Shown here in pieces: positions 26,453-45,587 of a DNA stretch of 46,235 nucleotides. Origin of the DNA: Candidatus Levyibacteriota bacterium (GTDB taxonomy: Bacteria > Patescibacteriota > Microgenomatia > Levybacterales > UBA12049); assembly GCA_016432345.1 (NCBI GenBank), contig CP066685.1, forward strand, positions 1 to 46,235, given 5' to 3'. The translations under genes and the position numbers were made by a program. The notes under the pieces were generated by a model that was given only the letters and a program-made list of their open reading frames with translations, did no database searches and had not been told where the DNA came from. Position 1 is the first letter of the stretch; every line of letters starts with the position of its first letter.

Positions 26453-27802
26453 TTATACCAGGTCTTTGTTATTCCTGCTAAAACAGAGACTCAAAACAAC
26501 AGCAAATAATATTTGTCCTTGTTGCAATGTTAAAAAGTAATGATCAAACAAACCCAGAATTAGAATAGTAGTAAGTAGTATGTAGCATGTATTAAGGGGT
26601 AAATTATTTCTCGTCTTGATACTTAATACTGCCCTTAGAAGAAACCACAAAAACATTCCTAACCCCAGCAGGCCTGTTTCTGCTACAATAAGAAAAAAGA
26701 TATTGTGTACCGGTTGAAGCAATGTAAAAAGAGAACCTGTATTGTTTTTTTGATAATAGGGAAGTGTCGGTAAAAAATTATACAGGCCAACTCCAAAAAC
26801 AGGATGATCTTTTACCATTGTTATTGCAGTATTTGCAAGTTCAATTCTTCTAACAATCGCTTCGTCCATTGTTGAAATATTGAAAAAACGAGAAGACAAA
26901 AAAAACATAAAAATGCTACCAATAAATACCAATATTGCCGCGCTTATAATTTGAAATGAATTTTTAATGACATAATTTTTAATAAAAAGTGCCACCATCA
27001 GAAACCATAAAATAATAGCAACGCGACTCATTGTAAACAAAAGAGCAATAGAACCAATCAATAAAGAAGTAAAAAAATAAATTTTTTTAATTTTGATACT
27101 TGACTGGAAATTGAAAATTATTGTTGTCATCGCGATGATTAAATATCCAGCCAAAACATTTGGGTGAGGAAATGTAGCGTATGGCCGCAAAACAAGTTTT
27201 CCATCTAACGAGGCATTGGCAATTCCTGAAGTTTGTGATGTAAATGTTCTTTCTCCAAAAAAATAAAATATTCCTCCAATTGACCCTTGTTTAACAAACT
27301 GCAAAATTGCCAAACCCGACTCAAACAAAACTCCCATACAAAATATAAATGCAAGTATTTTGAAATCCTGAGCAGTCTTTATTGTTTTTGCGGCAACAAA
27401 TCCCAAAAAAACAAATTCTAATAATTTGAGCAATCCATAAAATCCTGCCATTGGGTTTTTGGAAAAAAGTATACCAAACAGAAGAACTAATAAAAATAAA
27501 ACAATTTGCAATTTGAAATTTGAAATTTGAAATGAATTTTTAATATTTAAATTTTTAAATTTTTTTTGTTTGATTGAAAATTGAAAATTGAAAATTGAAA
27601 ATTTAGAAACTTGAATAAAAATGTCAAAGACCCACAAAACCAATAAAATAATAATTAAAACATCAGTAAAATACAGGGTGGGGGAAAGATAATCAATTCT
27701 TAATCCCGAAACATAAGACCAAGACGGCCAAAAATGTTTACCAAGTTGAACGGGAAGAAAAAGAATAATTGTATAAAAAATAAACTTTTGAAGTGTTTTC
27801 AA
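26453..27802 (-). CDS. O-antigen ligase (Wzy_C/WaaL-like) membrane protein
   Basis: About 11 TM segments; 'RPYATFPHPNVLAGY', 'TMSR', 'HPVFGVG', 'PVHNIF', 'FDHY'. Confidence 0.88.
   Translation of the reverse strand: MKTLQKFIFYTIILFLPVQLGKHFWPSWSYVSGLRIDYLSPTLYFTDVLIIILLVLWVFDIFIQVSKFSIFNFQFSIKQKKFKNLNIKNSFQISNFKLQIVLFLLVLLFGILFSKNPMAGFYGLLKLLEFVFLGFVAAKTIKTAQDFKILAFIFCMGVLFESGLAILQFVKQGSIGGIFYFFGERTFTSQTSGIANASLDGKLVLRPYATFPHPNVLAGYLIIAMTTIIFNFQSSIKIKKIYFFTSLLIGSIALLFTMSRVAIILWFLMVALFIKNYVIKNSFQIISAAILVFIGSIFMFFLSSRFFNISTMDEAIVRRIELANTAITMVKDHPVFGVGLYNFLPTLPYYQKNNTGSLFTLLQPVHNIFFLIVAETGLLGLGMFLWFLLRAVLSIKTRNNLPLNTCYILLTTILILGLFDHYFLTLQQGQILFAVVLSLCFSRNNKDLV
26569..26596 (+). repeat. Four-heptad TAG unit inside the ligase gene (antisense)
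   Basis: tagtaag|tagtatg|tagcatg|tattaag. Confidence 0.7.
27504..27614 (+). repeat. Heptamer arrays (ATTTGAA)3 and (ATTGAAA)4 inside the ligase gene
   Basis: Exact copies at 27511-27531 and 27573-27600, with degenerate flanks; encode 'FQISNFKLQI' and 'FSIFNFQFSI'. Confidence 0.92.
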
Positions 27803-32974: not shown

Positions 32975-35242
32975 TTATTTTATTGTTCCAAAACCAACTA
33001 AAGTATAACGTTGATTTTTAACCTCCCAATCGACAATTGGGTAAAGTTGTATTTTTGCATTAGTATTAGCGTCGTATGTTTCTAAAAAACCGTTTCCTCT
33101 AGGGTCAATGCTTTTAAATTTAATTATAGCAACATGCTCATTACCTGTAAAAATACCTGGTTGTGATTCAGAAAAAATTGTAAAACCAGGGGTAATAGTT
33201 GACAAGATATTTTTGTGATCATCATTAAGATAATCAAGATGTGTATATCCGGGAGTGCTTTTCCAAAAATTCCTCATGGAAATTACTGCTTGGTGATCTA
33301 ATCCAAGACCAGTTTTACCAGCTAGATTAAAGGCATCAATAACAAGATTTGTACACCAATAAAGGCCACGTGGACTAGTATTTATAAATTCTCCTGTTCG
33401 TGTTGTAGCAGTATAGGAGCCATTAGTAATATTTGCGGTCATCTTATTAAAATCACCAATTGGTCCTTCTTCTAAAACATCATTTATTTTGCTTGTCCAG
33501 TCAAGTATGTTTTTCGCATCTCCAGTTACAGGTAGCTGCGCTGTTAAAGCTGGCTGTTTTTGCTGGCAGTTTTGAAAATCTTTCCATACCTCATCACAAT
33601 AATTAAAAGATCCATACTCACATCTGGTAAAATAGCTGGTAATAACATTAGTAATCTCGTCTTTTGTTGGTGATTGAGTTAATCCGTCAGTTTTGAGTTT
33701 TTGGGCTGCGATATCTAAATTTTCAGTGATACTACATAGATTTTCTCCTTCATGGTAAATGTCTAATAGTTGCATAAGTCCAATTGCTGTAGCATCTTTG
33801 CCACCAATTTTTTTCTCGTCATCGGTACATTTTGGATCTTCACCATTTTTCCTTTCCACTCTATTAGCATTTATTACACAGAAGGTTTCGCCACGATTAC
33901 AAAAAGAATTGTCTTTAATTTCAATATCAGTATCAGTTTTATTAGCGGCGAAGCTTTGATTTTCATGCATAGCAACGCTGGCAAGGACAGATGAAGGAAT
34001 TCCTGCTTTGTTTGCGGCATCAGTAATCCATCCTTGCAAAATAGAGCTTTTAATTGGTCTTAATGAATTAGATTTAGTAAATTGACAGCTTGTTACATTT
34101 GATGATCCGCCTGCTTCATTTGGGGAGGCTTCGAGAGTTGTTGCTTCTCCTCCAATCACTCCAAAGACAATAGCAAATGTAATAACAGAAATAATAAGAA
34201 TCGGTATAATGACTGCAGCAGCAGATTGTATTGCGGCATTTTTAGCAAGGTTAGTAAGCGGATTACCGCTTAATCCATTTCGTATGGCATTTCCAATACC
34301 TCCTCCTGGTATTGGAGGCCTTCTTATTGATAGTGGGTTAGGGGGTATGCCTCTGGAATTTGTCGGAGAAGATATGCGGGGAATGGGAGGTGAGATAATT
34401 AGTGATTGCTGTTGTAAAATTGGTTGTGGTGGTTTTGGGGATGGTTGTAGTACGACTCTTTCTTCAACCCGTGCAACCGCTACTTTTATTTCTTCGTGTT
34501 TTGTAGTATATGCTGTTGCTTTTTCTGGATGTTGTTCTGCAAATCGTTCCCAATGAGCAGTTTCTACCTGCTTTTTAATTTGTTCAACGGTGATTCCTGG
34601 ATTTTGTTTTGTGAGTAATTCATGGCGTACTTGTGTGTGTAATTCAATTTCCTCCTGGTGCCAAATAAATGTCGGGTCCTGACGAGGATCATCATAGACT
34701 TTTTTTCTTTCTTCACTATATTGCTTCCATAACGTTTCATGTTTTGTTTTAAATTCTTCTTCGGTATTGCTAAACAATGTCGGGGCGCTGGGGTTTTCTA
34801 AAGAGCCGTAGCGGTAATCAATCCACTCTTTGCTGCTTGTGTCTTTTTCAGGATGATCTTTAAGCCAGGCATTAGCTTTTTCATTAAGGATGCGTTTAAA
34901 GTGAGGGTCTTCTTCTAAGATTTTTGGATGTTCTCGAGAAAAAAGTCCTCCTAAAAATCCCAGCGCAGCAAGAACATCTGGAACATTATGGTTGTCAACA
35001 TGCCCTGTTTGTTTTATTTGTTTTTCTTCATGTTGTTGTCGGAGATAAAAATACGCATCTTGGATTTCTTTGCCAACCCAAATATCGGTATTAATATTTC
35101 CATGCGTGTTTGCCCAGGCGACGAATTCTTGTTTAAGTACGAAATGCGAAACATCTGGATGTTGACTTACAAACACAAACCACCTTTTTGCTAATTTATC
35201 AGCCTCCTGCGATTGTGTTTTAATATAATTTTCAATGTTCAT
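32975..35242 (-). CDS. Membrane-anchored peptidoglycan hydrolase-like protein (SLT-like plus CHAP/NlpC-like domains)
   Basis: Central TM helix; 'AGIPSSVLASVAMHEN...AIGLMQL' (lytic transglycosylase-like); 'YWCTNLV...EHVAII' (Cys/His pair). Confidence 0.65.
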   Translation of the reverse strand: MNIENYIKTQSQEADKLAKRWFVFVSQHPDVSHFVLKQEFVAWANTHGNINTDIWVGKEIQDAYFYLRQQHEEKQIKQTGHVDNHNVPDVLAALGFLGGLFSREHPKILEEDPHFKRILNEKANAWLKDHPEKDTSSKEWIDYRYGSLENPSAPTLFSNTEEEFKTKHETLWKQYSEERKKVYDDPRQDPTFIWHQEEIELHTQVRHELLTKQNPGITVEQIKKQVETAHWERFAEQHPEKATAYTTKHEEIKVAVARVEERVVLQPSPKPPQPILQQQSLIISPPIPRISSPTNSRGIPPNPLSIRRPPIPGGGIGNAIRNGLSGNPLTNLAKNAAIQSAAAVIIPILIISVITFAIVFGVIGGEATTLEASPNEAGGSSNVTSCQFTKSNSLRPIKSSILQGWITDAANKAGIPSSVLASVAMHENQSFAANKTDTDIEIKDNSFCNRGETFCVINANRVERKNGEDPKCTDDEKKIGGKDATAIGLMQLLDIYHEGENLCSITENLDIAAQKLKTDGLTQSPTKDEITNVITSYFTRCEYGSFNYCDEVWKDFQNCQQKQPALTAQLPVTGDAKNILDWTSKINDVLEEGPIGDFNKMTANITNGSYTATTRTGEFINTSPRGLYWCTNLVIDAFNLAGKTGLGLDHQAVISMRNFWKSTPGYTHLDYLNDDHKNILSTITPGFTIFSESQPGIFTGNEHVAIIKFKSIDPRGNGFLETYDANTNAKIQLYPIVDWEVKNQRYTLVGFGTIK

Positions 35243-35249
35243 CTTCTCC

Positions 35250-35277
35250 CTTAATACATACTACTTGCTACTAACTA
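35250..35277 (-). repeat. Four-heptad TAG unit providing the virB4 stop codon
   Basis: tagttag|tagcaag|tagtatg|tattaag. Confidence 0.85.
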
Positions 35278-37564
35278 CTTTTTCTTCCTGTTTTTGTAGA
35301 ATTTCTTGTGGGTTAGAGGTAATAAGTTCATGCTCAAAAGGGGCGGCGACAATTTTTATGGCCACATGATTTTGCCCGGCAAAAAAAAGCCCCTCTCCAA
35401 TATTTGAGGCCAAAAGCAATTGTCTTTCTCCTTGGGAAAGAAAAAAGGTTTTACTAACAATATCAATTTCCGATGCGCCTTGTTTAAGAAGAATTTGTAA
35501 TGAAGAATTAGACAAAACAGCTTTTCCATAATCGGTGGATAAGAAATCTTCCACATCTTGTGTGGCTGTTGTTAAACCTAAATAGTATTTTCGAGCCCTT
35601 TTGGCAATGCCATAGACAAAGGAGGCGCTGTCTTCGTATTTCATCATGTACCAGGCCTCGTCCAAAATAAGCAGGCGTTTTTTAAGATTTTTTCGAATGC
35701 GCGTCCAGACGAAATCCAAAATAATATGCATGGTAATTGGTCGAAGCTGGTCTTCAAGTGTTTTAAGAGAAAACACGGTTAACGGATTTGTGATATCTAT
35801 ATTTGATTGTTGGTTAAATATGCCAGCCAGACTTCCTTTAATAAATTTTTCCAGTCTTAGCGCTAGTTCTTTAGCGTTTTCATCTTCCATACCCAAAAGC
35901 ACTTTATACAAATCTTCCATCAAAGGCGGCTCTTTATTTTGAGTTTTAGGGTCTTGGGTAATACCTTTTTGTTGATATGTTTGTACTAAAGCCCTATCTA
36001 AAATTGCATCGTGTGAAGCGTCAAGGTTGCCCATAACAATTTTTAAAAGCGCGTGTAAGGAGAGAATTTTAAGCCCCAGTTCATTTTCGCCCTCTGTGTA
36101 AAGTCCAGACAAATCAAACGGATTTATTTTTATTGGAGAAGAGGGAGTAAAACTTAAATATTCACCTTGTAAGGCTTTAGTTAAATTTTCGTATTCTCCT
36201 TCTGGGTCAAGAATTATTACTTCTGTTCCCAACATAAATTGTCGCAACACCTCAAGTTTAATAAAGTACGATTTTCCAGATCCTGATTTTCCAAAAACCA
36301 CCTCGTTGGCATTTTCCAGAGAAAATCTGTCAAAAACAACTAAAGAGCTGTTTTGTAAATTAACACCATATAATATTCCTTTATCTTGGGTAAGCATGGC
36401 CGAGGTAAAAGGAAACATGGAGGCAAGAGATGTTGTGTCCATATTGCGGGTCATAAAAAGTTTATCCTGACCTAGGGGGATAGTTGTTTTAAGCCCTTCT
36501 TCTGTTTGCAGTGTAGTCGGCTTGGCAAGAACAAGCAAGCTGGCTAGAGTGGATAGAAGGCGTTTGACAGCGCTATCTAAGTCCTGTTCGTTTTCGGAAG
36601 TTAGAGTAACATAAAGACTAAAAAGAAAAAATCGCTCCAGTCCTTTGGCCAATTCTTCCTGCAGTCCCAGCGCGTCTTCCAGAGCTGCTGTTACTGTGGG
36701 ATCAACAACTTTACCTTTTTCTGCTTGGCTGGAGATGGTTACTTCCATTTCGGCGATTTTACGCCGAAGATCGGAAAGAATATCGGGAGATGAGGCAGGG
36801 TAAATAAACATCGCAATATCAAGTTCATGATCAAAATCAATTAAAGGCGAGAGCCAATTAGAAGAAACATAGCGTGGATAGCCGACAATAAAAAAAGTTC
36901 TGGCAATTTTTGTGCCAATCTTAATAGATTTAAAATCAACTTCAATAGAAGAAGGAGCAATAAGGTCAACAACAGAGTTTTTAGGATTTTGAGTGTTTAA
37001 GGCTGTGCTATGCTCATCGTTGTAAATGCTGTAGAAAATTTTCATAAGGCTTTCTTTTTCGGCAATTTTACTTCGAAGCCCCAAGCGTCCAAACTGCGAC
37101 AGCACAGATTCTGCTTTGGTATGCAAAGCCGCCTTGGCAGAAAGAAAAAAATCCTCTTTTTTAAGAGTAGTTCCGACAACACTTTTCTCCAGAGATGAGT
37201 AAGACAAGACAATGTAAAATGTTTTATCAAGTACTGTATTTATCTTAATAAGGTCTTGAACAAATAAGCGGTATTTTTTAAGATAATCAGTTTGTTTTTC
37301 TGCATCAAGACGTTTTATGTAAGATGAGACATCAACGCGTTTGTTGCGAATAACAATTTGGACCGGAAAAGAAAGCGAATTAAGAAACGAGGCAAAAGCA
37401 AAAATTTTTGCTTGTTTTTCCTCGGGGGAGAGAAGTGAAAAATTTGTGGCCTGTACTTCTATAAGCAAACAAGCATTGCCGTTTGTTAAAAGTACGATAT
37501 CCTCTTGAATATCTTTTATTTCAGTAAACTTTTGAGTGGACGCGCGAATTTTTTGGGCAGCCAT
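35261..37564 (-). CDS. virB4: VirB4/TraC-like secretion ATPase
   Basis: Walker A GKSGSGKS, 'ILDPEGEY', 'INPFD', Walker B 'LILDEAW', 'KRARKY'. Confidence 0.9.
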   Translation of the reverse strand: MAAQKIRASTQKFTEIKDIQEDIVLLTNGNACLLIEVQATNFSLLSPEEKQAKIFAFASFLNSLSFPVQIVIRNKRVDVSSYIKRLDAEKQTDYLKKYRLFVQDLIKINTVLDKTFYIVLSYSSLEKSVVGTTLKKEDFFLSAKAALHTKAESVLSQFGRLGLRSKIAEKESLMKIFYSIYNDEHSTALNTQNPKNSVVDLIAPSSIEVDFKSIKIGTKIARTFFIVGYPRYVSSNWLSPLIDFDHELDIAMFIYPASSPDILSDLRRKIAEMEVTISSQAEKGKVVDPTVTAALEDALGLQEELAKGLERFFLFSLYVTLTSENEQDLDSAVKRLLSTLASLLVLAKPTTLQTEEGLKTTIPLGQDKLFMTRNMDTTSLASMFPFTSAMLTQDKGILYGVNLQNSSLVVFDRFSLENANEVVFGKSGSGKSYFIKLEVLRQFMLGTEVIILDPEGEYENLTKALQGEYLSFTPSSPIKINPFDLSGLYTEGENELGLKILSLHALLKIVMGNLDASHDAILDRALVQTYQQKGITQDPKTQNKEPPLMEDLYKVLLGMEDENAKELALRLEKFIKGSLAGIFNQQSNIDITNPLTVFSLKTLEDQLRPITMHIILDFVWTRIRKNLKKRLLILDEAWYMMKYEDSASFVYGIAKRARKYYLGLTTATQDVEDFLSTDYGKAVLSNSSLQILLKQGASEIDIVSKTFFLSQGERQLLLASNIGEGLFFAGQNHVAIKIVAAPFEHELITSNPQEILQKQEEKVVSSK

Positions 37565-37569
37565 AAAAT

Positions 37570-38583
37570 TTAACTAAACAAAGCTTTACGCAGTTCTTCT
37601 CGGGCATCAATGCTTGTTGCTTCAATTGGCCCAATAATTTCGCCAGTCATGGTGAGTTCTAGGGCGTCAAATTTTTGCTTTCCGCTTGGATCATCAAATT
37701 CAATGGTATATACGCCGTTTAAAAGAGGAGTAGCCGAGGCAAATTGGCCGAGCTGATTTGTTTTAAACGCCCTAACAGGATTGTTGTCTTTGTCTTTTAC
37801 TTCAACTAGAATATTCGACAAAATATTGCCCCTGGCATTTTTAACAATTCCAATTAATACATTAGGCGAATCAGAAACAGGCAGTCCCACCGCATTTGTT
37901 AGGCTTTTTGCCGGCACTTTTTTAACAATAGCTTGCGTAACTTGTATTGGCGGAGCAGGCAGAGGTTCTGTTTTAACAGATGGTTGTTGGATTTGCGGCG
38001 GCGCAGTTTTTTGCTGCGCAAGCATTTGCTTAAGCGCAAGAAGCTCTTTTTCGATACGTTCTTTTTCCAAGCGGGTAGTTTGCAATTCTTGTAGAATAGA
38101 CTGATAGTTTGTTTGTTCTTTTTGTGGCTGCTGCTGGATAATTTGTTGGGTAGGCTGAGAGATAACATCGGCTTTTTTTGATTCTTCCGGCTGTTTTTTA
38201 GAAATTTGAAGAACAGGAGGTTTTGGTGTTGAGTTTGCTGGGGACGCAGTTGTTGCAATGGGTTTTAGCATGGCTTTTGTTTGTAATTGTGGAGAGTTAG
38301 ATAGCTGATATATATATTGGTTTGGAGTAAACAGCGCTTTAATAAAGTTAATAATCATAACATCCATTGGTCGTCCCTCAATTGGTAAAAAAGCTAAACC
38401 AAAGCCGAAAAAACCAAAAATAAAAGAAATCGGCAACTTAATAATTCCAGGCATGGGAGAAATATATACAACCCAGGCCATAACAACCCCGCTAATTAAA
38501 TAGGAAAATTGCTTAACAGTCATGTTGCCAATCAGTTTAAACTGAAAGCCGGTAACATCTTGTGGAATAGGATGATTTTCCAT
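37570..38583 (-). CDS. prgI: PrgI-family (VirB3-like) membrane protein with a C-terminal carboxypeptidase-regulatory-like domain
   Basis: 'HPIPQDVTGFQFKLIGNMTVKQF', two TM segments, 'GRP'; C-terminal 'KTNQLGQFASATPLLNGVY'. Confidence 0.85.
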   Translation of the reverse strand: MENHPIPQDVTGFQFKLIGNMTVKQFSYLISGVVMAWVVYISPMPGIIKLPISFIFGFFGFGLAFLPIEGRPMDVMIINFIKALFTPNQYIYQLSNSPQLQTKAMLKPIATTASPANSTPKPPVLQISKKQPEESKKADVISQPTQQIIQQQPQKEQTNYQSILQELQTTRLEKERIEKELLALKQMLAQQKTAPPQIQQPSVKTEPLPAPPIQVTQAIVKKVPAKSLTNAVGLPVSDSPNVLIGIVKNARGNILSNILVEVKDKDNNPVRAFKTNQLGQFASATPLLNGVYTIEFDDPSGKQKFDALELTMTGEIIGPIEATSIDAREELRKALFS

Positions 38584-38589
38584 ATACTT

Positions 38590-38624
38590 AAGCGTATAGC
38601 GTAAAGAAAATAGCGTATAGTTAG
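38590..38624 (+). repeat. TAGCGTA-type heptad array downstream of the four-helix-bundle gene
   Basis: aagcgta|tagcgta|aagaaaa|tagcgta|tagttag. Confidence 0.85.
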
Positions 38625-38626
38625 AA

Positions 38627-39004
38627 CTAAATGCTAGACGTTGTTACCTCCTTTCTTTTATAAACCATAACATATAGCATTTTTATAGCTTCATTTAATA
38701 ATGACTCAGCGTTTTTAAATTTTTCTTCAACTGTAAAATGAAGCTTTTTGGAGATAATTAATTGTGTTTCGAGTTCTAATGCTGATCCATATGCTATTGC
38801 GTAGAACTGTAGATATTCCTTGTGCGATCTCCTTCTGTATCCTTCTGCAATGTTTGATGGGATAGATATAGAAGATCTCCGAATTTGAGAAATGATTCCA
38901 TATATTTCCTCTTTTGGAAAAAGAGCAGTTAGTTGATATATGCACTTAACTAATTCAATAGATTTTTGCCAAACGATTAAATCTTTGTATGATGTTATTT
39001 TCAT
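38627..39004 (-). CDS. Four-helix-bundle protein (23S rRNA IVP / Avd-like family)
   Basis: 'SYKDLIVWQKS', 'FPKEEIYG..SQIRRS..SIPSNIAEG', 'AYGSALELETQL'. Confidence 0.93.
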   Translation of the reverse strand: MKITSYKDLIVWQKSIELVKCIYQLTALFPKEEIYGIISQIRRSSISIPSNIAEGYRRRSHKEYLQFYAIAYGSALELETQLIISKKLHFTVEEKFKNAESLLNEAIKMLYVMVYKRKEVTTSSI

Positions 39005-39011
39005 AATCTCA

Positions 39012-39088
39012 ATTAACTAAATACTATACGTTATGGACTATACGCTTGTAATAAAAACTATACGCTAAACGCTATTCTCTATACCCTA
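39012..39088 (-). repeat. TAGCGTA-type heptad array upstream of the four-helix-bundle gene (inverted relative to the downstream array)
   Basis: Minus strand: tagggta|tagagaa|tagcgtt|tagcgta|tagtttt|tattaca|agcgta|tagtcca|taacgta|tagtatt|tagttaa. Confidence 0.85.
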
Positions 39089-39140
39089 TGTTTATATAAT
39101 GTGAAAAATCTGATTTCAAGATTATCAAAGTAGGTCAAAA

Positions 39141-39170
39141 GGGGTACAAAATTGGGAATTTTTGTGAAAA
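39141..39170 (+). repeat. 30-bp direct repeat, left copy
   Basis: ggggtacaaaattgggaatttttgtgaaaa; 29/30 identical to 39893-39922. Confidence 0.95.
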
Positions 39171-39177
39171 GTCGATA

Positions 39178-39215
39178 TTGACAGAACAACAGCTTTGTTA
39201 TAATATAGTTATAAC
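39178..39215 (+). promoter_or_regulatory. Promoter and palindromic operator of the AbrB-Doc module
   Basis: TTGACA 39178-83, TATAAT 39199-204 (15-nt spacer, suboptimal); palindrome GTTATAA-tatag-TTATAAC 39197-39215. Confidence 0.65.
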
Positions 39216-39245
39216 CAAAATAACAAGGAGGGGGGGGTGATAGTT

Positions 39246-39494
39246 ATGTTACAAAAAATAATTCAAGTTGGTAATTCGTATGCTATAACTATACCGCGAA
39301 GATTTGCAGACGAGATAGGAATAAAACCAGGACAAAAAGTTAGAATAGATGAAGATTTTGATACCGAAACATTTACAGTGCAGCCAGTAAAATCTCAAGC
39401 AGCAAAAGGTTATCTTACGCCGGAATTCTTAAAATGGCTCAAAGGATTTAACGCGCGATATAAAGATGCGTTAAAAGAGTTAGCAAAAAAATGA
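39246..39494 (+). CDS. AbrB/MazE-type antitoxin
   Basis: 'IIQVGNSYAITIPRRFADEIGIKPGQKV'. ATG at 39246 or GTG at 39237. Confidence 0.88.
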   Translation: MLQKIIQVGNSYAITIPRRFADEIGIKPGQKVRIDEDFDTETFTVQPVKSQAAKGYLTPEFLKWLKGFNARYKDALKELAKK

Positions 39495-39886
39495 AAGGGA
39501 TTACTTATATCACTTTAGATGTTGTTTTAGCCATTCATGATGATATGGTAGAACGATATGGAGGGAGCCATGGCATAAAAGATTTAGGGTTGATTCAGTC
39601 AGCGCTTGCTCGACCACAGGCGTCATTTGGTGGAGAAGATCTTTATCCAACAATTCTTGATAAGGCTGCCGCTCTTTTTCATTCACTTATTTTCAATCAT
39701 GCTTTTACAGATGGAAACAAGCGTACGTCTATCACGACTACCGCTCGATTTCTTTACATAAATGGATATGAATTCAAAGTAGATAAAAAGGAGCTTATCG
39801 ATTTTCCGCTTCGTGTTGAGAATAAACATTTAACTATCGTAGAAATTGCCAAATGGCTTAAAACCCACGCCAGAAAAAAAAGGTAG
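39491..39886 (+). CDS. doc: Doc/Fic-family toxin
   Basis: Fic motif HAFTDGNKRT; 'GIKDLGLIQSALARP'. Confidence 0.93.
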   Translation: MKGITYITLDVVLAIHDDMVERYGGSHGIKDLGLIQSALARPQASFGGEDLYPTILDKAAALFHSLIFNHAFTDGNKRTSITTTARFLYINGYEFKVDKKELIDFPLRVENKHLTIVEIAKWLKTHARKKR

Positions 39887-39892
39887 TAAAAC

Positions 39893-39922
39893 GGGGTACA
39901 AAATTGGGAATTTTTGCGAAAA
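39893..39922 (+). repeat. 30-bp direct repeat, right copy
   Basis: ggggtacaaaattgggaatttttgcgaaaa. Confidence 0.95.
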
Positions 39923-39924
39923 TC

Positions 39925-41139
39925 CTATTTATATATTGCGTCAACATTTCCAATAGCAGAAATACCAAGCATAAAAAGCATTATTAAAAGACCCCCGCTG
40001 CCACCTTTCTTTCTTAGCGCATTAACACTCTCGGCAATTTTTCTCCTGTCTTCTTCAGACATTGACTCTGTGCCCGGAATTGCGGCAATTACAGATTCAA
40101 CATTGCCGCTTCTCACAGCCCTGATAAGCGTTTTTGCTGTTTCTAGGTCTCCAGCGCCTTGTTTTGTTTGTTCCATAAACTTTTGGAGCGGACCATCTTT
40201 TGCCAGCGCTTGCGCTGCGTATGATAATATTTTTGCTTGGGTTTCCGCCTGCGCTAATGCGTCAGTTGTCTCTTTGGTTGGATTTCTTTTAACTGCTTCT
40301 TTTGCTTGCTCTACCATTTCGTTTGCGGTTTGTTGGATAGTTTCTCCACTTACTCCTGCTTTGCTGAATGCTTCAACGACAGTTTCGAAATTAAGAAGAT
40401 TTCCTTGTTCGGCCGCACGGGTTATTACTTCCATAAAGGCTGTTTGTTGTTCTATGTCTTGAGGAGCAATAGATTTGTGAAGTTCTAAAAGATCGTTTAT
40501 GGTGAGCATGCCATTACTTTCTGCTCCTTTTATAATGACTGCGTCCATTGCTGCGCTTTCCGCAGTTCCTAAAGCAGGTATGGCATGGTCTGGGTCTTTG
40601 AGAATGTTAATTTGCATTTCCAAAACTGCTCTTTCGGGGGAATCTTTTGGAAACTGACTTAAAATAGCATCTGCTTCCGATAGTAGTTGAGCATCAAAAA
40701 CAGCAGATCTAGCAACGGTTTGTACATCATCCACCCCTTCAACACGACACGTAAAAGTTTCGTCGTCAGCGCTTTCGATATAGAGCAGTTTTCTTTGTTC
40801 GCCGTTTATTGTTAGCATTGCTGGATTGCCGTCGGTAAAATCAATGCCGTTTGGATCATTATTTGTTTTGTGATTTCCCGATGCTATGCTTCTGATAGCG
40901 TCTAAATTTTTAATTTGGTTTCTTGCGCGGATTGTTTCTGGGGTTTGCTGACTATTTCCAGTGTCAGCAGCCAATTCGTTTGCTTTTCTTCTTATGGTTG
41001 CATTGGTAACTTGTCGTAGTTCTGTTTGCTGCACGTCTTGTCTGGTTTTTTCTGGCATAGGGTTTGATTCTGGCGCTGCTTCTGGCGATGGCACAGACGG
41101 AGGTGGTTCTGGAGGTCTTATTTCTGTTGCTTCTGGCAT
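39925..41139 (-). CDS. Hypothetical acidic protein with a Pro/Glu-rich N-terminus and a C-terminal hydrophobic anchor
   Basis: 404-aa ORF with a good upstream promoter; no family recognised. Confidence 0.7.
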   Translation of the reverse strand: MPEATEIRPPEPPPSVPSPEAAPESNPMPEKTRQDVQQTELRQVTNATIRRKANELAADTGNSQQTPETIRARNQIKNLDAIRSIASGNHKTNNDPNGIDFTDGNPAMLTINGEQRKLLYIESADDETFTCRVEGVDDVQTVARSAVFDAQLLSEADAILSQFPKDSPERAVLEMQINILKDPDHAIPALGTAESAAMDAVIIKGAESNGMLTINDLLELHKSIAPQDIEQQTAFMEVITRAAEQGNLLNFETVVEAFSKAGVSGETIQQTANEMVEQAKEAVKRNPTKETTDALAQAETQAKILSYAAQALAKDGPLQKFMEQTKQGAGDLETAKTLIRAVRSGNVESVIAAIPGTESMSEEDRRKIAESVNALRKKGGSGGLLIMLFMLGISAIGNVDAIYK

Positions 41140-41145
41140 AATACG

Positions 41146-41173
41146 ATCATAGCACTTGATATTTATTTGTCAA
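41146..41173 (-). promoter_or_regulatory. Sigma70 promoter for 39925..41139
   Basis: Minus strand TTGACA (41173-68), 16-nt spacer, TATGAT (41151-46), then 6 nt to ATG. Confidence 0.75.
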
Positions 41174-41192
41174 TCAATTACTATTTTTCTAT

Positions 41193-44100
41193 ATGGCCGA
41201 TCTTAATGTTGCGCCGGAGCATTTGGTTCCTGCGGAAGGAGCGGTAAAACCCGCAGGTGCTACGGCGGTTGCGCCGGAGTCATCAAAAGGACGGGAATTT
41301 CTAAAAAGTGAATTTGTCAAGGAATTCAGCACAGGAACAACCTTAAATAAAGGAAAAGTCGAAGTGCCTGGAAAAATAGAAGGAAAAAGTGTATATATTA
41401 GTCCCGAAACAGAAGCAAAATACACAAACTTTTTAATGGATTATCTTCCTCATGTATATACTGCCTTACAGAGAAATCCGTCTTTGCGGGATAATCCGCT
41501 TTTTCAGTTGGATATTCCTCTTGTCGAAGCGCTAACAACAGACGGTAAAGCAGACCTGAAAAAAATAGATGAATTTTTTGATGACGCAAAAGGATGGATA
41601 CTTGCCACAGAAGTAATCACCCGTTTTGCCAGTCAGGCAAAAAGAGTTTCTGGGCTCGTATCAGAAATCAGTCCACAGGGAAGAAGAACTGCGACAACAG
41701 AAGGTTTGAGGGTGCGTATGGGAGACGCGAGATTCTTAAACAAACTTTGGCGCGATAGAATTGTTCCTGGTTTTATGAAGATTAGGGCAAATCCTGTTTT
41801 ACAGGTATTTGCAGGGTATAACATTAGTGGGGTATTGGGTATTGGAGCCGCAGCAGGATTTGGTGCGCCTCCTGAAGTAGTTATTGGAGGCGCAGCGGCT
41901 ATTGCCGGCGCAGAAGGGTTGGGTATGGTTGGCGCAGGAGCTGTAAGGTCTTTTAAAAACAGCGGTACAGAAATTGTGCTTAGCACAAACATTGGTGTTT
42001 TTAACAATATAAAAAATAATCCTGCGGAAAAAGCATATGTGCAGGCGCTTTTAGGTGTTGACATAGATCATTTAGAAGAGGATCCTGCAATGCCTGGAAG
42101 GCTTCGACAGATTCCAGAAATGACACCTGTAACCAACCGCGATGCAGACGATATACGCGATGAGGCATTAAGATTAATTTATGCCAGGAGAGATTTTTTT
42201 AAGGATATTGGCATCTCGGCAAAACGCGCAGATACACTTCCGGAAGAAACAATATGGAGAAATACTGTTGTAACAGAAGGGTTTGAACGGGTTGCCACAG
42301 TATGGGAAGAGGAAATGATAAAAGCATTTAAACCAGATAGTGGTGGAGTTTTGGATAAATGGAAAAGAAACGAAGAAGACCCTGATTTTTGCAGAGACAC
42401 AACTATTATTGGATCATCGCCGGATTATGTCAATAATCTTGATACAGCGGGAAACATAGAGAGATTTAACCGAGCTCGTCAGGAAGTTATGATGCGAATA
42501 ACCATGGAGCACGTAGGACAAACACTTAATGGACAGGCTATTAATCGTACAAAAACAGCATTGAAGGGGAAAATTAAAGCCATAGAAGATGGAGGAGACA
42601 AAGAAAAAAGAAAGGCAGAACTAACCAAGCAAAAAGCAGAACTGCAAAGAGAAAAAGATAGACTTACCCCGCAACAGTCTAAAATAGACGCATACAAAGA
42701 AAAAGCAGCAGTTGTTAATACTGGAGATCGGGATTTTAAAAGAGAGTTTCGTTCGGATGTCGCAGCTGGCCGGGATATAGAAGGGACGATAACAAGAATT
42801 GATGGAGAAATAGATGCGTATGAAATAACAATCCGTGATCGAAAAGACAATAATGATGCAAATATTAATGCGGCAATTACAGTAGAAATAGGGAAGTTGC
42901 CCCCCGTTGCCTTAACAGGTAATCCTAAAGAAGATCAGCCAATGCAACGAAGAAGGGAAGAACGAGAAACTAGCATTGGTAGAGAGATACGAAAGAATTA
43001 CGAGGAGCAAACAACACTTTTAACAGCGCAGCTTAATAGTAGACAGACGCAGGTAGAGAGGCTTCTTACTCTGCAACAACAGGATCAGGAATACAGACAG
43101 AATGTGAGAGCAAATGATGACGAGCTGTTAGCGGATGCAAAAGAAGATTTGGGCATAATGGAAGCAGCATACAAAGCATACAGTAAGTTTACTGCTGCGC
43201 CACCGGCAGGATGGAATATTTCTGAAGTAATACTTTTAAGTCAAAATCCCCAGGAATTAATGGTAACGCTCAATGGTTTTTACGCAAAAGACCTTGCTGC
43301 TGGAGTTGCGGCGGTTAACCGCCGAGGATGGCCAGTAGATCAAAACAATGTCGCGTCAAATAGAGAACGGGTAATTTTCGCCATTGCCGAAATAAAAGCT
43401 CGGAGGTTGGAAGCAGAAGATCCACAAACAAGCGTCCGCGGTCCTGACTACACACAGGTGACAGGATGGACAATTACAGAGGATCAGTTACGGATATTAT
43501 CAGAAAACGCATTGAATAGTCTTATCAATGATCGTTGGGCGGCAACAGGTGGAACAGAGGGTTGGCAGCCTGCAGATAATACTGATCCTGCCAATATAAC
43601 ACGACTCAGAAACGCAGTTGCTGAATCAAGAAACAGGCTTTTGGTTAGATACATTGCTGTTGTTGCCGAAAAGACAGCTGATTTCGATGCGCAAATAAAA
43701 GCGCTCGATGAGGCTTCTTTAGAAATAGATGCTGAAACAACAGAAGAACAGCTTAAGCCTTTTAGATTAACAGCTGCATTGTTAGACCGTCAAGCAGAAG
43801 TATTTACCAAATCTTCCGAGATAAAAACAGAAACAGCTAAATATATAGATTTGGCAAGAATAGGCGCCGCCGATACAACATATTCTCAAGCGGAAAGAGG
43901 GGCAAACCAGCCAAAAGGGTATTACGAAATTATGGATGTACTTTTTGATTTTCAAAAAAGGGAGAGCGGAGATCGAGGAGCATACTTTCAAGAGATTAGC
44001 AATTTTATCCCACCGCAAAAATTAGCAGAATTATTAAATTATGCTTTTGATCTTGGTCTTGTTTCTGGCGGTCCGGCTGCCGCGCGCGTTAATATTAACA

Positions 44101-44216
44101 ATGCCCTTAATCAATTGCGTGCTGGAATTGACAGTAATGACATTTCGTATTCCGGACTTTACGCTGGTTTTAGAAATATAATAAACAGATTGGGAGAAGA
44201 AGCAATAGCGGCATAA
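41193..44216 (+). CDS. Large hypothetical protein (Gly/Ala-rich hydrophobic hairpin, coiled coil, internal repeat)
   Basis: 1007-aa uninterrupted ORF; no family recognised. Confidence 0.75.
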   Translation: MADLNVAPEHLVPAEGAVKPAGATAVAPESSKGREFLKSEFVKEFSTGTTLNKGKVEVPGKIEGKSVYISPETEAKYTNFLMDYLPHVYTALQRNPSLRDNPLFQLDIPLVEALTTDGKADLKKIDEFFDDAKGWILATEVITRFASQAKRVSGLVSEISPQGRRTATTEGLRVRMGDARFLNKLWRDRIVPGFMKIRANPVLQVFAGYNISGVLGIGAAAGFGAPPEVVIGGAAAIAGAEGLGMVGAGAVRSFKNSGTEIVLSTNIGVFNNIKNNPAEKAYVQALLGVDIDHLEEDPAMPGRLRQIPEMTPVTNRDADDIRDEALRLIYARRDFFKDIGISAKRADTLPEETIWRNTVVTEGFERVATVWEEEMIKAFKPDSGGVLDKWKRNEEDPDFCRDTTIIGSSPDYVNNLDTAGNIERFNRARQEVMMRITMEHVGQTLNGQAINRTKTALKGKIKAIEDGGDKEKRKAELTKQKAELQREKDRLTPQQSKIDAYKEKAAVVNTGDRDFKREFRSDVAAGRDIEGTITRIDGEIDAYEITIRDRKDNNDANINAAITVEIGKLPPVALTGNPKEDQPMQRRREERETSIGREIRKNYEEQTTLLTAQLNSRQTQVERLLTLQQQDQEYRQNVRANDDELLADAKEDLGIMEAAYKAYSKFTAAPPAGWNISEVILLSQNPQELMVTLNGFYAKDLAAGVAAVNRRGWPVDQNNVASNRERVIFAIAEIKARRLEAEDPQTSVRGPDYTQVTGWTITEDQLRILSENALNSLINDRWAATGGTEGWQPADNTDPANITRLRNAVAESRNRLLVRYIAVVAEKTADFDAQIKALDEASLEIDAETTEEQLKPFRLTAALLDRQAEVFTKSSEIKTETAKYIDLARIGAADTTYSQAERGANQPKGYYEIMDVLFDFQKRESGDRGAYFQEISNFIPPQKLAELLNYAFDLGLVSGGPAAARVNINNALNQLRAGIDSNDISYSGLYAGFRNIINRLGEEAIAA

Positions 44217-44219
44217 AAT

Positions 44220-44579
44220 ATGAAAATTACAACAAAAAGTATTATTAAAGCGCTTCCCTTTGAAGAGCAATTTAGATTAGATTTAATAAATAAGCTTGAT
44301 TCTTTATCTGCTGATCAAAAATTTACCATCGAGCAGATTCTTTGGGATGCGTACTTTTCTTTGTATGATCTTAAGATGGATACAAATCTTAAACTGGCTT
44401 TGGAGCGTGCCAAAAACAACGAAGAGACACTAGATAAAGATTTCTATAAACGTGTGGAAGCGCAAACAGAGAAAGAGATGGAAAATCAGGCAGTTGAAGC
44501 AACGGAGAGGGTAGATTTGACTGCGGCGCGAAAGGCCATGGAGCTGATTGTTAAAGAAATTCAAGAAAGTAAAAAATAA
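44220..44579 (+). CDS. Hypothetical helical protein
   Basis: 119 aa; 3-nt gap from the upstream gene and 11-nt gap to the next (operonic). Confidence 0.7.
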   Translation: MKITTKSIIKALPFEEQFRLDLINKLDSLSADQKFTIEQILWDAYFSLYDLKMDTNLKLALERAKNNEETLDKDFYKRVEAQTEKEMENQAVEATERVDLTAARKAMELIVKEIQESKK

Positions 44580-44590
44580 AAACTAAGTGA

Positions 44591-45250
44591 ATGGGGTTTC
44601 TGATACTGTTATTTGCTGAAATTATTGTTCTTTTTTTCCTCTCTCGCATAGTTGCCCGATTGTTATTGCAGATGTTCTCTATTCGTCTGATCGCGCTTGT
44701 TTTTCTTCCCGGCATTGTAGTTCACGAATTGGCGCATTTGCTTGTTGCAAATTTACTTTTGGTAAAAACAGGCCACATCGAATTTGTGCCGCAAATTAAC
44801 AAGCATGGTGTAAAACTTGGCAGTGTTGAAATTATTAAAACCGATCCAATAAGAAGAATGATGATTGGTTTTGCGCCAGTTTTTGTTGGTATAGCAATGC
44901 TTTTTAGCATTCTTTACGCAATTATCCAAAAAGATGTGATTGCCAAAAACATTACTTCCCAGCCACTACAAGTAGTTTTTTATATTATGGCTTTTTATTT
45001 TCTTTTTGTAATTAGCAATACCATGTTTTCCAGTTCTAAAGATATGGAAGGAACAGCAGAAGTTTTACTGGTTGTTTTAGGAATTGCGGTGGCGTTATAT
45101 GCGGTTGGTGTTCGTGTTGATTATTCTTTGCTGCAGGGCATTCTGGTGAGTCAGGAAGGCATCCTGCAAAAGGCAGTCATGCTTTTATCTTTTCCTATTG
45201 TTATAGACCTGGGAGTGTGGGGAATAACAAAAGTAGTGAGTAGCAAGTAG
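44591..45250 (+). CDS. M50-like membrane zinc metalloprotease
   Basis: 'LPGIVVHELAH' in a TM context, 'MIGFAP', multiple TM segments. Confidence 0.8.
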   Translation: MGFLILLFAEIIVLFFLSRIVARLLLQMFSIRLIALVFLPGIVVHELAHLLVANLLLVKTGHIEFVPQINKHGVKLGSVEIIKTDPIRRMMIGFAPVFVGIAMLFSILYAIIQKDVIAKNITSQPLQVVFYIMAFYFLFVISNTMFSSSKDMEGTAEVLLVVLGIAVALYAVGVRVDYSLLQGILVSQEGILQKAVMLLSFPIVIDLGVWGITKVVSSK

Positions 45251-45261
45251 TATGTATTATG
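45234..45261 (+). repeat. Four-heptad TAG unit providing the M50 gene stop codon
   Basis: tagtgag|tagcaag|tagtatg|tattatg. Confidence 0.85.
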
Positions 45262-45266
45262 CAAAA

Positions 45267-45587
45267 TTATTTGCAGTTTTCAAAACCGGGGAACACACCA
45301 ATACAGGCAACACCGGTGATATAGGCTATGATGCTTACCACAAGAGCGGCGGTAAAGATAACAAAGAGGCCAATAATGGCGTAAGTTAAGGTGTGCCGCG
45401 CTCCTTCCATTTTTTTGGCGTCTCCTCCTGCTAATATAAGTTTGATGCCGGCATAGGCAATTAGAATAATGGCTGTGATGCCAGCCAGAGTAAATGCGGA
45501 TATCACAAAACGCTGAAAAATAAGAGGGAAACAATCAAGAGTTGCGATTTTATCTTTGCCAGAAACAACACAATCATCCCAAGTCAT
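45267..45587 (-). CDS. TrbC/VirB2-like pilin
   Basis: Two hydrophobic helices around 'YAGIKLILAGGDAKKMEGARHTLTYAIIGL'. Confidence 0.82.
   Translation of the reverse strand: MTWDDCVVSGKDKIATLDCFPLIFQRFVISAFTLAGITAIILIAYAGIKLILAGGDAKKMEGARHTLTYAIIGLFVIFTAALVVSIIAYITGVACIGVFPGFENCK

Follow-up and report, generated by a model that had tools for sequence, protein, structure and literature searches.

Heptad arrays at the ends of two genes of the type IV secretion cluster of a Levybacteria genome: probable solo arms of a PF05635-associated cassette family

The 23S rRNA intervening sequence (IVS) found in Coxiella burnetii contains an S23p open reading frame (ORF) with a 28-bp terminal inverted stem and, ahead of the ATG, tandem heptamers whose number is variable between strains (PMC4990558). 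Also, intergenic TAACTGA heptamer direct repeats were described by MacGregor in 2015 for marine Beggiatoaceae, Cyanobacteria, and Bacteroidetes; these overlap the ends of ORFs by up to about 18 nt and often finish just before a start codon, and the argument from stop codons in all reading frames was already made for them (PMC4679880). Here, we analyze a heptad array of 31 nt that closes two unrelated genes in the first 46,235 nt of contig CP066685.1 (assembly GCA_016432345.1, Candidatus Levyibacteriota bacterium), a stretch referred to below as the window. One of the genes encodes a VirB4-like ATPase and the other a membrane protein with a HExxH motif, both from a type IV secretion system (T4SS) cluster. 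According to the original prediction, made from the letters of the window, the array would be a mobile unit that truncates or terminates the genes in which it lands. The comparison with relatives suggests that the two units are probably orphan solo arms of a family of cassettes in which inverted heptad arrays flank a PF05635 gene.

The two 31-nt units and the gene ends they supply

The VirB4 and HExxH genes share their last six codons and the stop (KVVSSK, then TAG) because the same 31-base heptad run caps each of them (Table 1). As anticipated, the two 31-mers are identical at 30/31 positions, and the sole mismatch is a T/G difference in a synonymous Val codon. The identity continues for 9 nt beyond the stop codon, and on both sides of the 31-mers the resemblance breaks off sharply. 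Each unit corresponds to 4.4 copies of a NGTAKNW heptad (here called GTA-type), within the size expected of a cassette arm (~4-5 units, 28-35 nt), and the order of the variant heptads is the same in both copies. Each of the three frames of the sense strand is interrupted by TAG or TGA, in line with the stops in every frame that had been predicted, and one or two frames are open in the antisense strand. The argument built on these stops describes largely what purifying selection alone would give.

A chance origin of the pair was rejected, both by shuffles, which give an expectation of 0.00 for occurrences of the 21-nt core with no more than 3 mismatches, and by a search of the 762,565-bp genome at up to 4 mismatches, where no further copy beyond the two 31-mers was found. 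Misassembly at the repeat was also rejected; both junctions keep the gene order of the relative G001, in which the MxIEN gene comes after VirB4 and the HExxH gene converges with that of the pilin. In register, the identity of the two units is 27/28, plus a common AAA prefix, a coincidence rare among unrelated pairs of the family, which suggests that they likely share a recent common origin.

No orthologue of VirB4 or of the HExxH protein among those compared ends in KVVSSK. The closest VirB4 orthologues end in QKQEASKQT (same genus) and QKQQNIPPAG, and the same-genus orthologue of the HExxH protein ends in GTIKIFT. In the nearest orthologues the tail has equal length and a different sequence; therefore, the last codons were replaced and the genes were not truncated, contrary to what had been proposed. 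Regarding the gene labels, VirB4 is supported by its NF045971 match. The M50 protease label of the second gene was not borne out, since the Pfam M50 model gives an E value of 0.81 and the HExxH motif alone is present. The VirB4 unit is followed, 9 bases after the stop, by the Shine-Dalgarno (SD) sequence AAGGGAG of the next gene, and the HExxH unit lies in a 16-nt gap ahead of the convergent pilin gene.

A shared ending in two proteins of the same T4SS cluster, with a single and synonymous nucleotide difference, is what a selected C-terminal peptide signal of secretion-system proteins would also produce. However, the identity runs past the stop codon, the tail is present in no orthologue, and what encodes the tail is a heptad array from a known DNA family whose SSK ending is found on unrelated ORFs in other phyla; we give a peptide signal hardly any credence.

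In addition, the two units form a 97% inverted repeat, divergent and 9.9 kb apart, that brackets the T4SS genes at 35283-45228. Such an arrangement could correspond to a functional cis-element of the cluster, either as the 31-bp inverted repeat of an invertible 9.9-kb segment or as a shared binding site for protein or RNA where the two divergent operons have their outer ends. Both end genes point outward, their tails would stay intact after inversion, and the only difference between the units is silent. Nonetheless, the VirB4(-)...HExxH(+) arrangement is kept in many relatives without the repeat, the same type of array caps unrelated genes elsewhere, no recombinase was noted beside the units, and the downstream contexts differ, being an SD followed by ATG in one case and a convergent gene in the other. 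A cis-element of the T4SS cluster is thus quite improbable.

Folding gave no stable structure or hairpin at either unit of the window (z +1.9 for the VirB4 unit, which is unstructured as RNA). An intrinsic terminator was ruled out on this basis, one of the units being, moreover, inside an operon and just ahead of the SD. A variable/template repeat pair of a diversity-generating retroelement was ruled out as well: the genome has no RVT_1, the units differ by T/G at one position, and with 31 nt the repeat is too short.

Concerning VirB4 itself, the match is continuous in the window genome, G001, G008, and G026, whereas in most relatives (loci L031-L057) it falls on two separate ORFs, an N-terminal part of ~190-250 aa and another of 570+ aa, and many relatives carry long Pro/Gln/Thr-rich C-terminal tails on it. 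Within the same cluster, an exact 24-nt direct repeat (GGGGTACAAAATTGGGAATTTTTG) at 39141-39164 and 39893-39916 lies upstream of two plus-strand genes and may be a shared promoter or operator. Also, a run of eight G (39226-39240) comes right after the AAGGAG Shine-Dalgarno of a gene starting near 39237-39247; slippage in this run could change the translation of the gene behind it.

Table 1. Position of the heptad arrays and of the genes around them in the window
Feature	Position	Strand	Remarks
GTA-type heptad array, copy 1	35252..35282	minus	AAA + AGTAGTT AGTAGCA AGTAGTA TGTATTA; AAAAGTAGTTAGTAGCAAGTAGTATGTATTA
GTA-type heptad array, copy 2	45229..45259	plus	AGTAGTG as first unit; AAAAGTAGTGAGTAGCAAGTAGTATGTATTA
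VirB4-like type IV secretion ATPase	35261..37564	minus	767 aa, ends in KVVSSK and stop; NF045971, 428 bits
HExxH membrane protein	44591..45250	plus	219 aa, ends in KVVSSK and stop; adjoins the pilin gene, neighborhood conserved
755-aa gene directly downstream of VirB4	32975..35242	minus	native N-terminus MNIEN kept (G001: MDIEN)
T4SS pilin gene	45267..45587	minus	PF18895; convergent on the HExxH gene
PF05635 / TIGR02436 four-helix-bundle gene (23S rRNA IVS protein)	38627..39004	minus	only one in the genome; between the two GTA units
Left arm of the PF05635 cassette	38591..38622	plus	AGCGTAT-type heptads
Right arm of the PF05635 cassette	39056..39087	minus	AGCGTAT-type, inverted; 75% complementary to the left arm
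Third GTA-type array	26564..26596	plus	antisense inside the Wzy_C gene, in frame, encodes ...NTCYILLTT...
Wzy_C (O-antigen-ligase-like) gene	26453..27802	minus	holds the third array plus three other heptad arrays (27502-27615)

The array family and its PF05635 cassettes in relatives

Of 245 genomes in the order, 94 have matches to the motif AGTAGCAAGTAGTATGTATTA with up to 3 mismatches, frequently a large number each, whereas the reversed pattern used as a control gives almost none. These GTA-type arrays mix AGTATTA, AGTAGTA, TGTATTA, AGTAGCA, and similar units. Outside the order, the exact 21-mer is present in metagenome-assembled genomes (MAGs) of Daviesbacteria and Gracilibacteria, in a MAG labelled Gammaproteobacteria, and in seven metagenome contigs; a 28-mer with K wobble found no match in metagenome contigs. 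A phage origin was rejected because the 21-mer has no exact match in viral contigs.

In 50 loci of relatives, picked by similarity to the query rather than by a whole-genome census and with ORFs taken from stop to stop, the stop codon of a sense-strand ORF (at least 80 aa) falls under 41 of 76 arrays, compared with 7% of random positions, and in about half of these 41 the array's own TAG or TAA is the stop. An inverted partner at 80 nt or less accompanies 34/76 arrays, and RNA folding of seven such pairs gave long imperfect hairpins in all of them (z from -2.1 to -7.1). Among the arrays with no partner, 15 are sense at a stop and three are antisense at a stop. The orientation with respect to coding sequences is, then, not random, as had been expected. 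The SSK ending (AGT AGY AAG TAG) was also found on five more unrelated ORFs of other genomes, other phyla included. Moreover, the expectation that sense copies lie at gene ends and antisense copies are tolerated inside genes holds in the window genome, where no stop-bearing array is sense inside an ORF and 12 are antisense inside ORFs, although these internal counts depend on a gene map made with a crude codon-usage caller.

Of 20 relatives tested, 19 have PF05635 genes, in numbers that reach 12 copies. At 17 of 20 PF05635 loci heptad arrays abut the ORF, and at nine of them both sides carry inverted arrays. The fit between arms and gene is close: the start of the ORF lies within the final unit on the left side (...AGT ATG A...), and the complementary right arm opens with the TAA triplet that ends the ORF. 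The unit of the window belongs to an arm type that flanks such ORFs, GTA-type arms being found beside PF05635 genes in G106:C17, G032:C22, and G053:C7 (21-mer with 1-3 mismatches) and in G007:C13 (same arm type). Among themselves, the four GTA-armed proteins share 65-72% identity, compared with a mean identity of 39% to the other proteins, and on the tree they fall into a single group (0/500 label shuffles as clustered), albeit with weak branch support. Thus, the arm type travels with the protein. In a separate case, the cassettes of loci L108 (G119) and L118 (G114) have quite different arm units at the same host site, which lies downstream of a short ORF (MFHGKIIV...) and is followed by sequence that the two loci conserve; therefore, either arms turn over quickly or cassettes are replaced.

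Gain or loss of the cassette is observed at the thyA-NUDIX/DHFR junction, which was compared within one genus (g29) and in G027 of another genus (loci L150-L159). The site between thyA and NUDIX is empty in G054, G057, and G056 (stop, 3 nt, ATG), and it holds a GTA-armed PF05635 cassette in G032, G053, and G027. Relic sites with only a few arm-derived heptads are seen in G030 and G033, and in G055 the junction is occupied by a different element. At the filled sites, the right arm gives the downstream gene a new ATG followed by the rest of MIHNT or MILNT, in place of the native MTPQ, and the start codon and first residues (MIHNT) come from this arm whichever gene follows. Since the arms of filled sites also supply the end codons of their neighbors, they become terminal coding sequence on both sides. 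In G032 (L113), the DHFR gene further downstream starts with MIQNT. Thus, the mobility that had been predicted is supported in so far as gain and loss occur at a fixed junction; a free-standing mobile 31-mer is not, because in relatives this sequence makes up one of the two inverted arms of a cassette or hairpin.

Probable solo arms and the possibility of locally made arrays

The only PF05635 gene of the genome lies between the two GTA units, and it has arms of another type, AGCGTAT. This cassette (38591-39087) heads the minus-strand VirB4 operon, and in G001 a PF05635 gene is found at the same place of the T4SS cluster (C5:19353-19646). The AGCGTAT family has ~21 copies in the genome, four of them sense at stops, one antisense at a stop, ten antisense in ORFs, and none sense in ORFs, and several form hairpin pairs. 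AGCGTAT arms thus behave in the same way as the GTA-type arms. With no partner arm near either GTA unit and AGCGTAT arms on the sole PF05635 gene, the two units would be orphan solo arms, an interpretation that we consider probable. The VirB4 junction is a recurrent landing site, given that the spacer downstream of this gene carries other arm types in G018 (GCAACTA), G028 (TTTGCTA), and G004 (GTATTA-like).

According to this interpretation, in Levybacteria and other members of the Candidate Phyla Radiation (CPR), arrays of 4-5 NGTAKNW heptads are disposed as convergent inverted pairs, which either flank base-for-base a PF05635 ORF (a four-helix-bundle, Avd-like protein annotated as '23S rRNA IVS protein') or make a gene-less hairpin. 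These elements occupy very short spacers at gene boundaries, with the outward-facing strand of each arm presenting TAG/TAA in all three frames. For this reason, a gene running into an arm is closed within six codons at most and gains an array-encoded tail (...SSK and stop), and the complementary arm can provide the gene on the opposite side with a new ATG and the codons that follow it. In the window, two arms have taken the place of the final codons, poorly conserved, of VirB4 and of the HExxH protein, and nothing else of the element is present. We infer, along with the way in which arms are copied, that both units derive from a cassette or hairpin lost later and that they would be functionless today.

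Several points weigh against this interpretation. The PF05635 protein of the window belongs to a clade other than the GTA-armed one, and the genome has no cognate PF05635 gene for the GTA units, so the loss of a cognate GTA cassette must be assumed. In the vicinity of both units there is neither a partner arm nor a PF05635 remnant, and no insertion footprint is readable at either site, the junctions being too diverged from G001 and G008. No transposition enzyme is known for heptad-armed PF05635 cassettes. In addition, 0.5% of unrelated family pairs attain a 27/28 match, which leaves the common origin of the two units short of proof, and the 50 loci behind the position counts were the product of a similarity search.

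The other arrays of the genome bear on a further explanation. Period-7 arrays of at least four units number 84, versus 0-21 for lags of 5, 6, and 8-12 nt; most of them measure 30-32 nt, with many different units. On the crude gene map, 73 are inside ORFs in the stop-free orientation and five lie across a stop codon. An origin without any cassette can be imagined, in which arrays are made locally, by a lineage-wide writing of ~30-nt heptad patches or by microsatellite slippage, and the two units were then made alike by gene conversion or by templating from the same donor. This would agree with the abundance of in-frame arrays of many units and nearly constant size, with the 31-nt length of the common segment, which is the standard array size, and with the different units found at orthologous positions in different genomes. 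Nonetheless, conservation of the set of GTA units extends over the whole order and further, the set goes with a single PF05635 clade, both copies have the same order of variant units, and at the relic sites cassettes have left arms behind. A local origin of the arrays is therefore unlikely, though less so than a T4SS cis-element.

The third GTA-type array had been described as a diverged antisense copy of the unit inside a ligase gene; the array is real and antisense, and the gene is that of a Wzy_C protein. However, its identity to the unit is 26/31, or 24/28 in register, a level reached by 23% of unrelated family pairs, and it is only an ordinary family member, not a specific copy. At the same position of the Wzy_C protein, G001 and G028 have different heptad arrays. 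The same gene contains at 27502-27615 a composite of four AATTTGA, a short AT-rich stretch, and four ATTGAAA, translated as ...FSIFNFQFSIKQKKFKNLNIKNSFQISNFKLQ..., which recurs nearly identical in another membrane-protein gene (genome positions 149956-150052).

An origin as repetitive extragenic palindromic (REP) sequences driven by a REP-associated tyrosine transposase (RAYT) was ruled out, because the Y1 transposase (PF01797) is unrelated to array abundance and the unit does not pair with itself. PF01797 genes are missing in genomes with 9-12 array matches, and there are five in each of the array-less G001 and G008. Outside the window, a Y1 transposase gene (genome positions 735598-735867, in the region 735354-736137) has on both sides copies of a palindrome, TTCCACCTTAGAGGTGGAA, also found at ~567.1, 570.0, and 726.4 kb, a set that resembles IS200/IS605 or REP-RAYT elements.

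Wider reading and comparison with known systems

A broader proposal, which at present we hold only tentatively and consider less likely than not, is that PF05635 (Avd-like) genes with inverted heptad arms constitute an undescribed class of mobile cassettes, abundant in CPR. The protein would recognize its own type of arm, considering that arms and protein clades travel together, and the elements would colonize gene-boundary spacers, routinely rewrite C- and N-terminal codons, leave solo arms like the two KVVSSK units, and perhaps seed the many in-frame heptad arrays of CPR genomes. If this were true, the 23S rRNA intervening sequences and the bacterial 'heptamer repeats' would have a common origin. 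The results described here also join three themes that the papers found treat only separately, namely, the excess of heptanucleotide repeats in bacteria, the heptamer arrays with stops that lie at the ends of genes, and the 23S rRNA intervening sequences that contain an ORF. In the literature, we found no account in which dispersed heptad arrays are the arms of PF05635 cassettes and recode the termini of genes.

The two genes analyzed here, unrelated and with identical last codons and stop, offer a concrete case of a short repeat becoming the end of a protein, and in relatives the cassette arms also give new start codons and first residues. For the annotation of CPR genomes this would be a warning, as the terminal residues of many genes may be repeat-derived and carry no functional signal.

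A repeat that becomes part of a protein recalls the Rickettsia palindromic elements, reportedly described by Ogata et al. in 2000 as selfish short repeats tolerated in frame in protein-coding genes. In contrast with heptad arrays, those elements are palindromes of 100-150 bp, with no heptad periodicity and no cassette gene. The likeness to REP sequences and their REPIN doublets, associated with RAYT transposases, lies in short dispersed repeats at the 3' ends of genes, single or as inverted doublets with long hairpins; however, the units described here are non-palindromic, have an internal 7-nt periodicity, and are not tracked by PF01797.

A closer parallel is found in the TAACTGA repeats, which are also tandem heptamers with stops in three frames in one direction, reversed inside ORFs and forward at ORF ends, as are the arrays of the window genome (PMC4679880). 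The unit is a different one here, and for the TAACTGA repeats no link with a cassette gene and only one inverted repeat were reported (PMC4679880). Finally, the cassettes of the relatives share with the Coxiella IVS a PF05635-family ORF of ~120 aa, terminal inverted repeats of ~28 bp that form a stem, and heptamers directly before the ATG (PMC4990558). Unlike the Coxiella element, they are located between or on protein-coding genes and not in rRNA, with up to 12 per genome and many of them gene-less or solo, and the two units of the window would represent solo arms turned into coding sequence.

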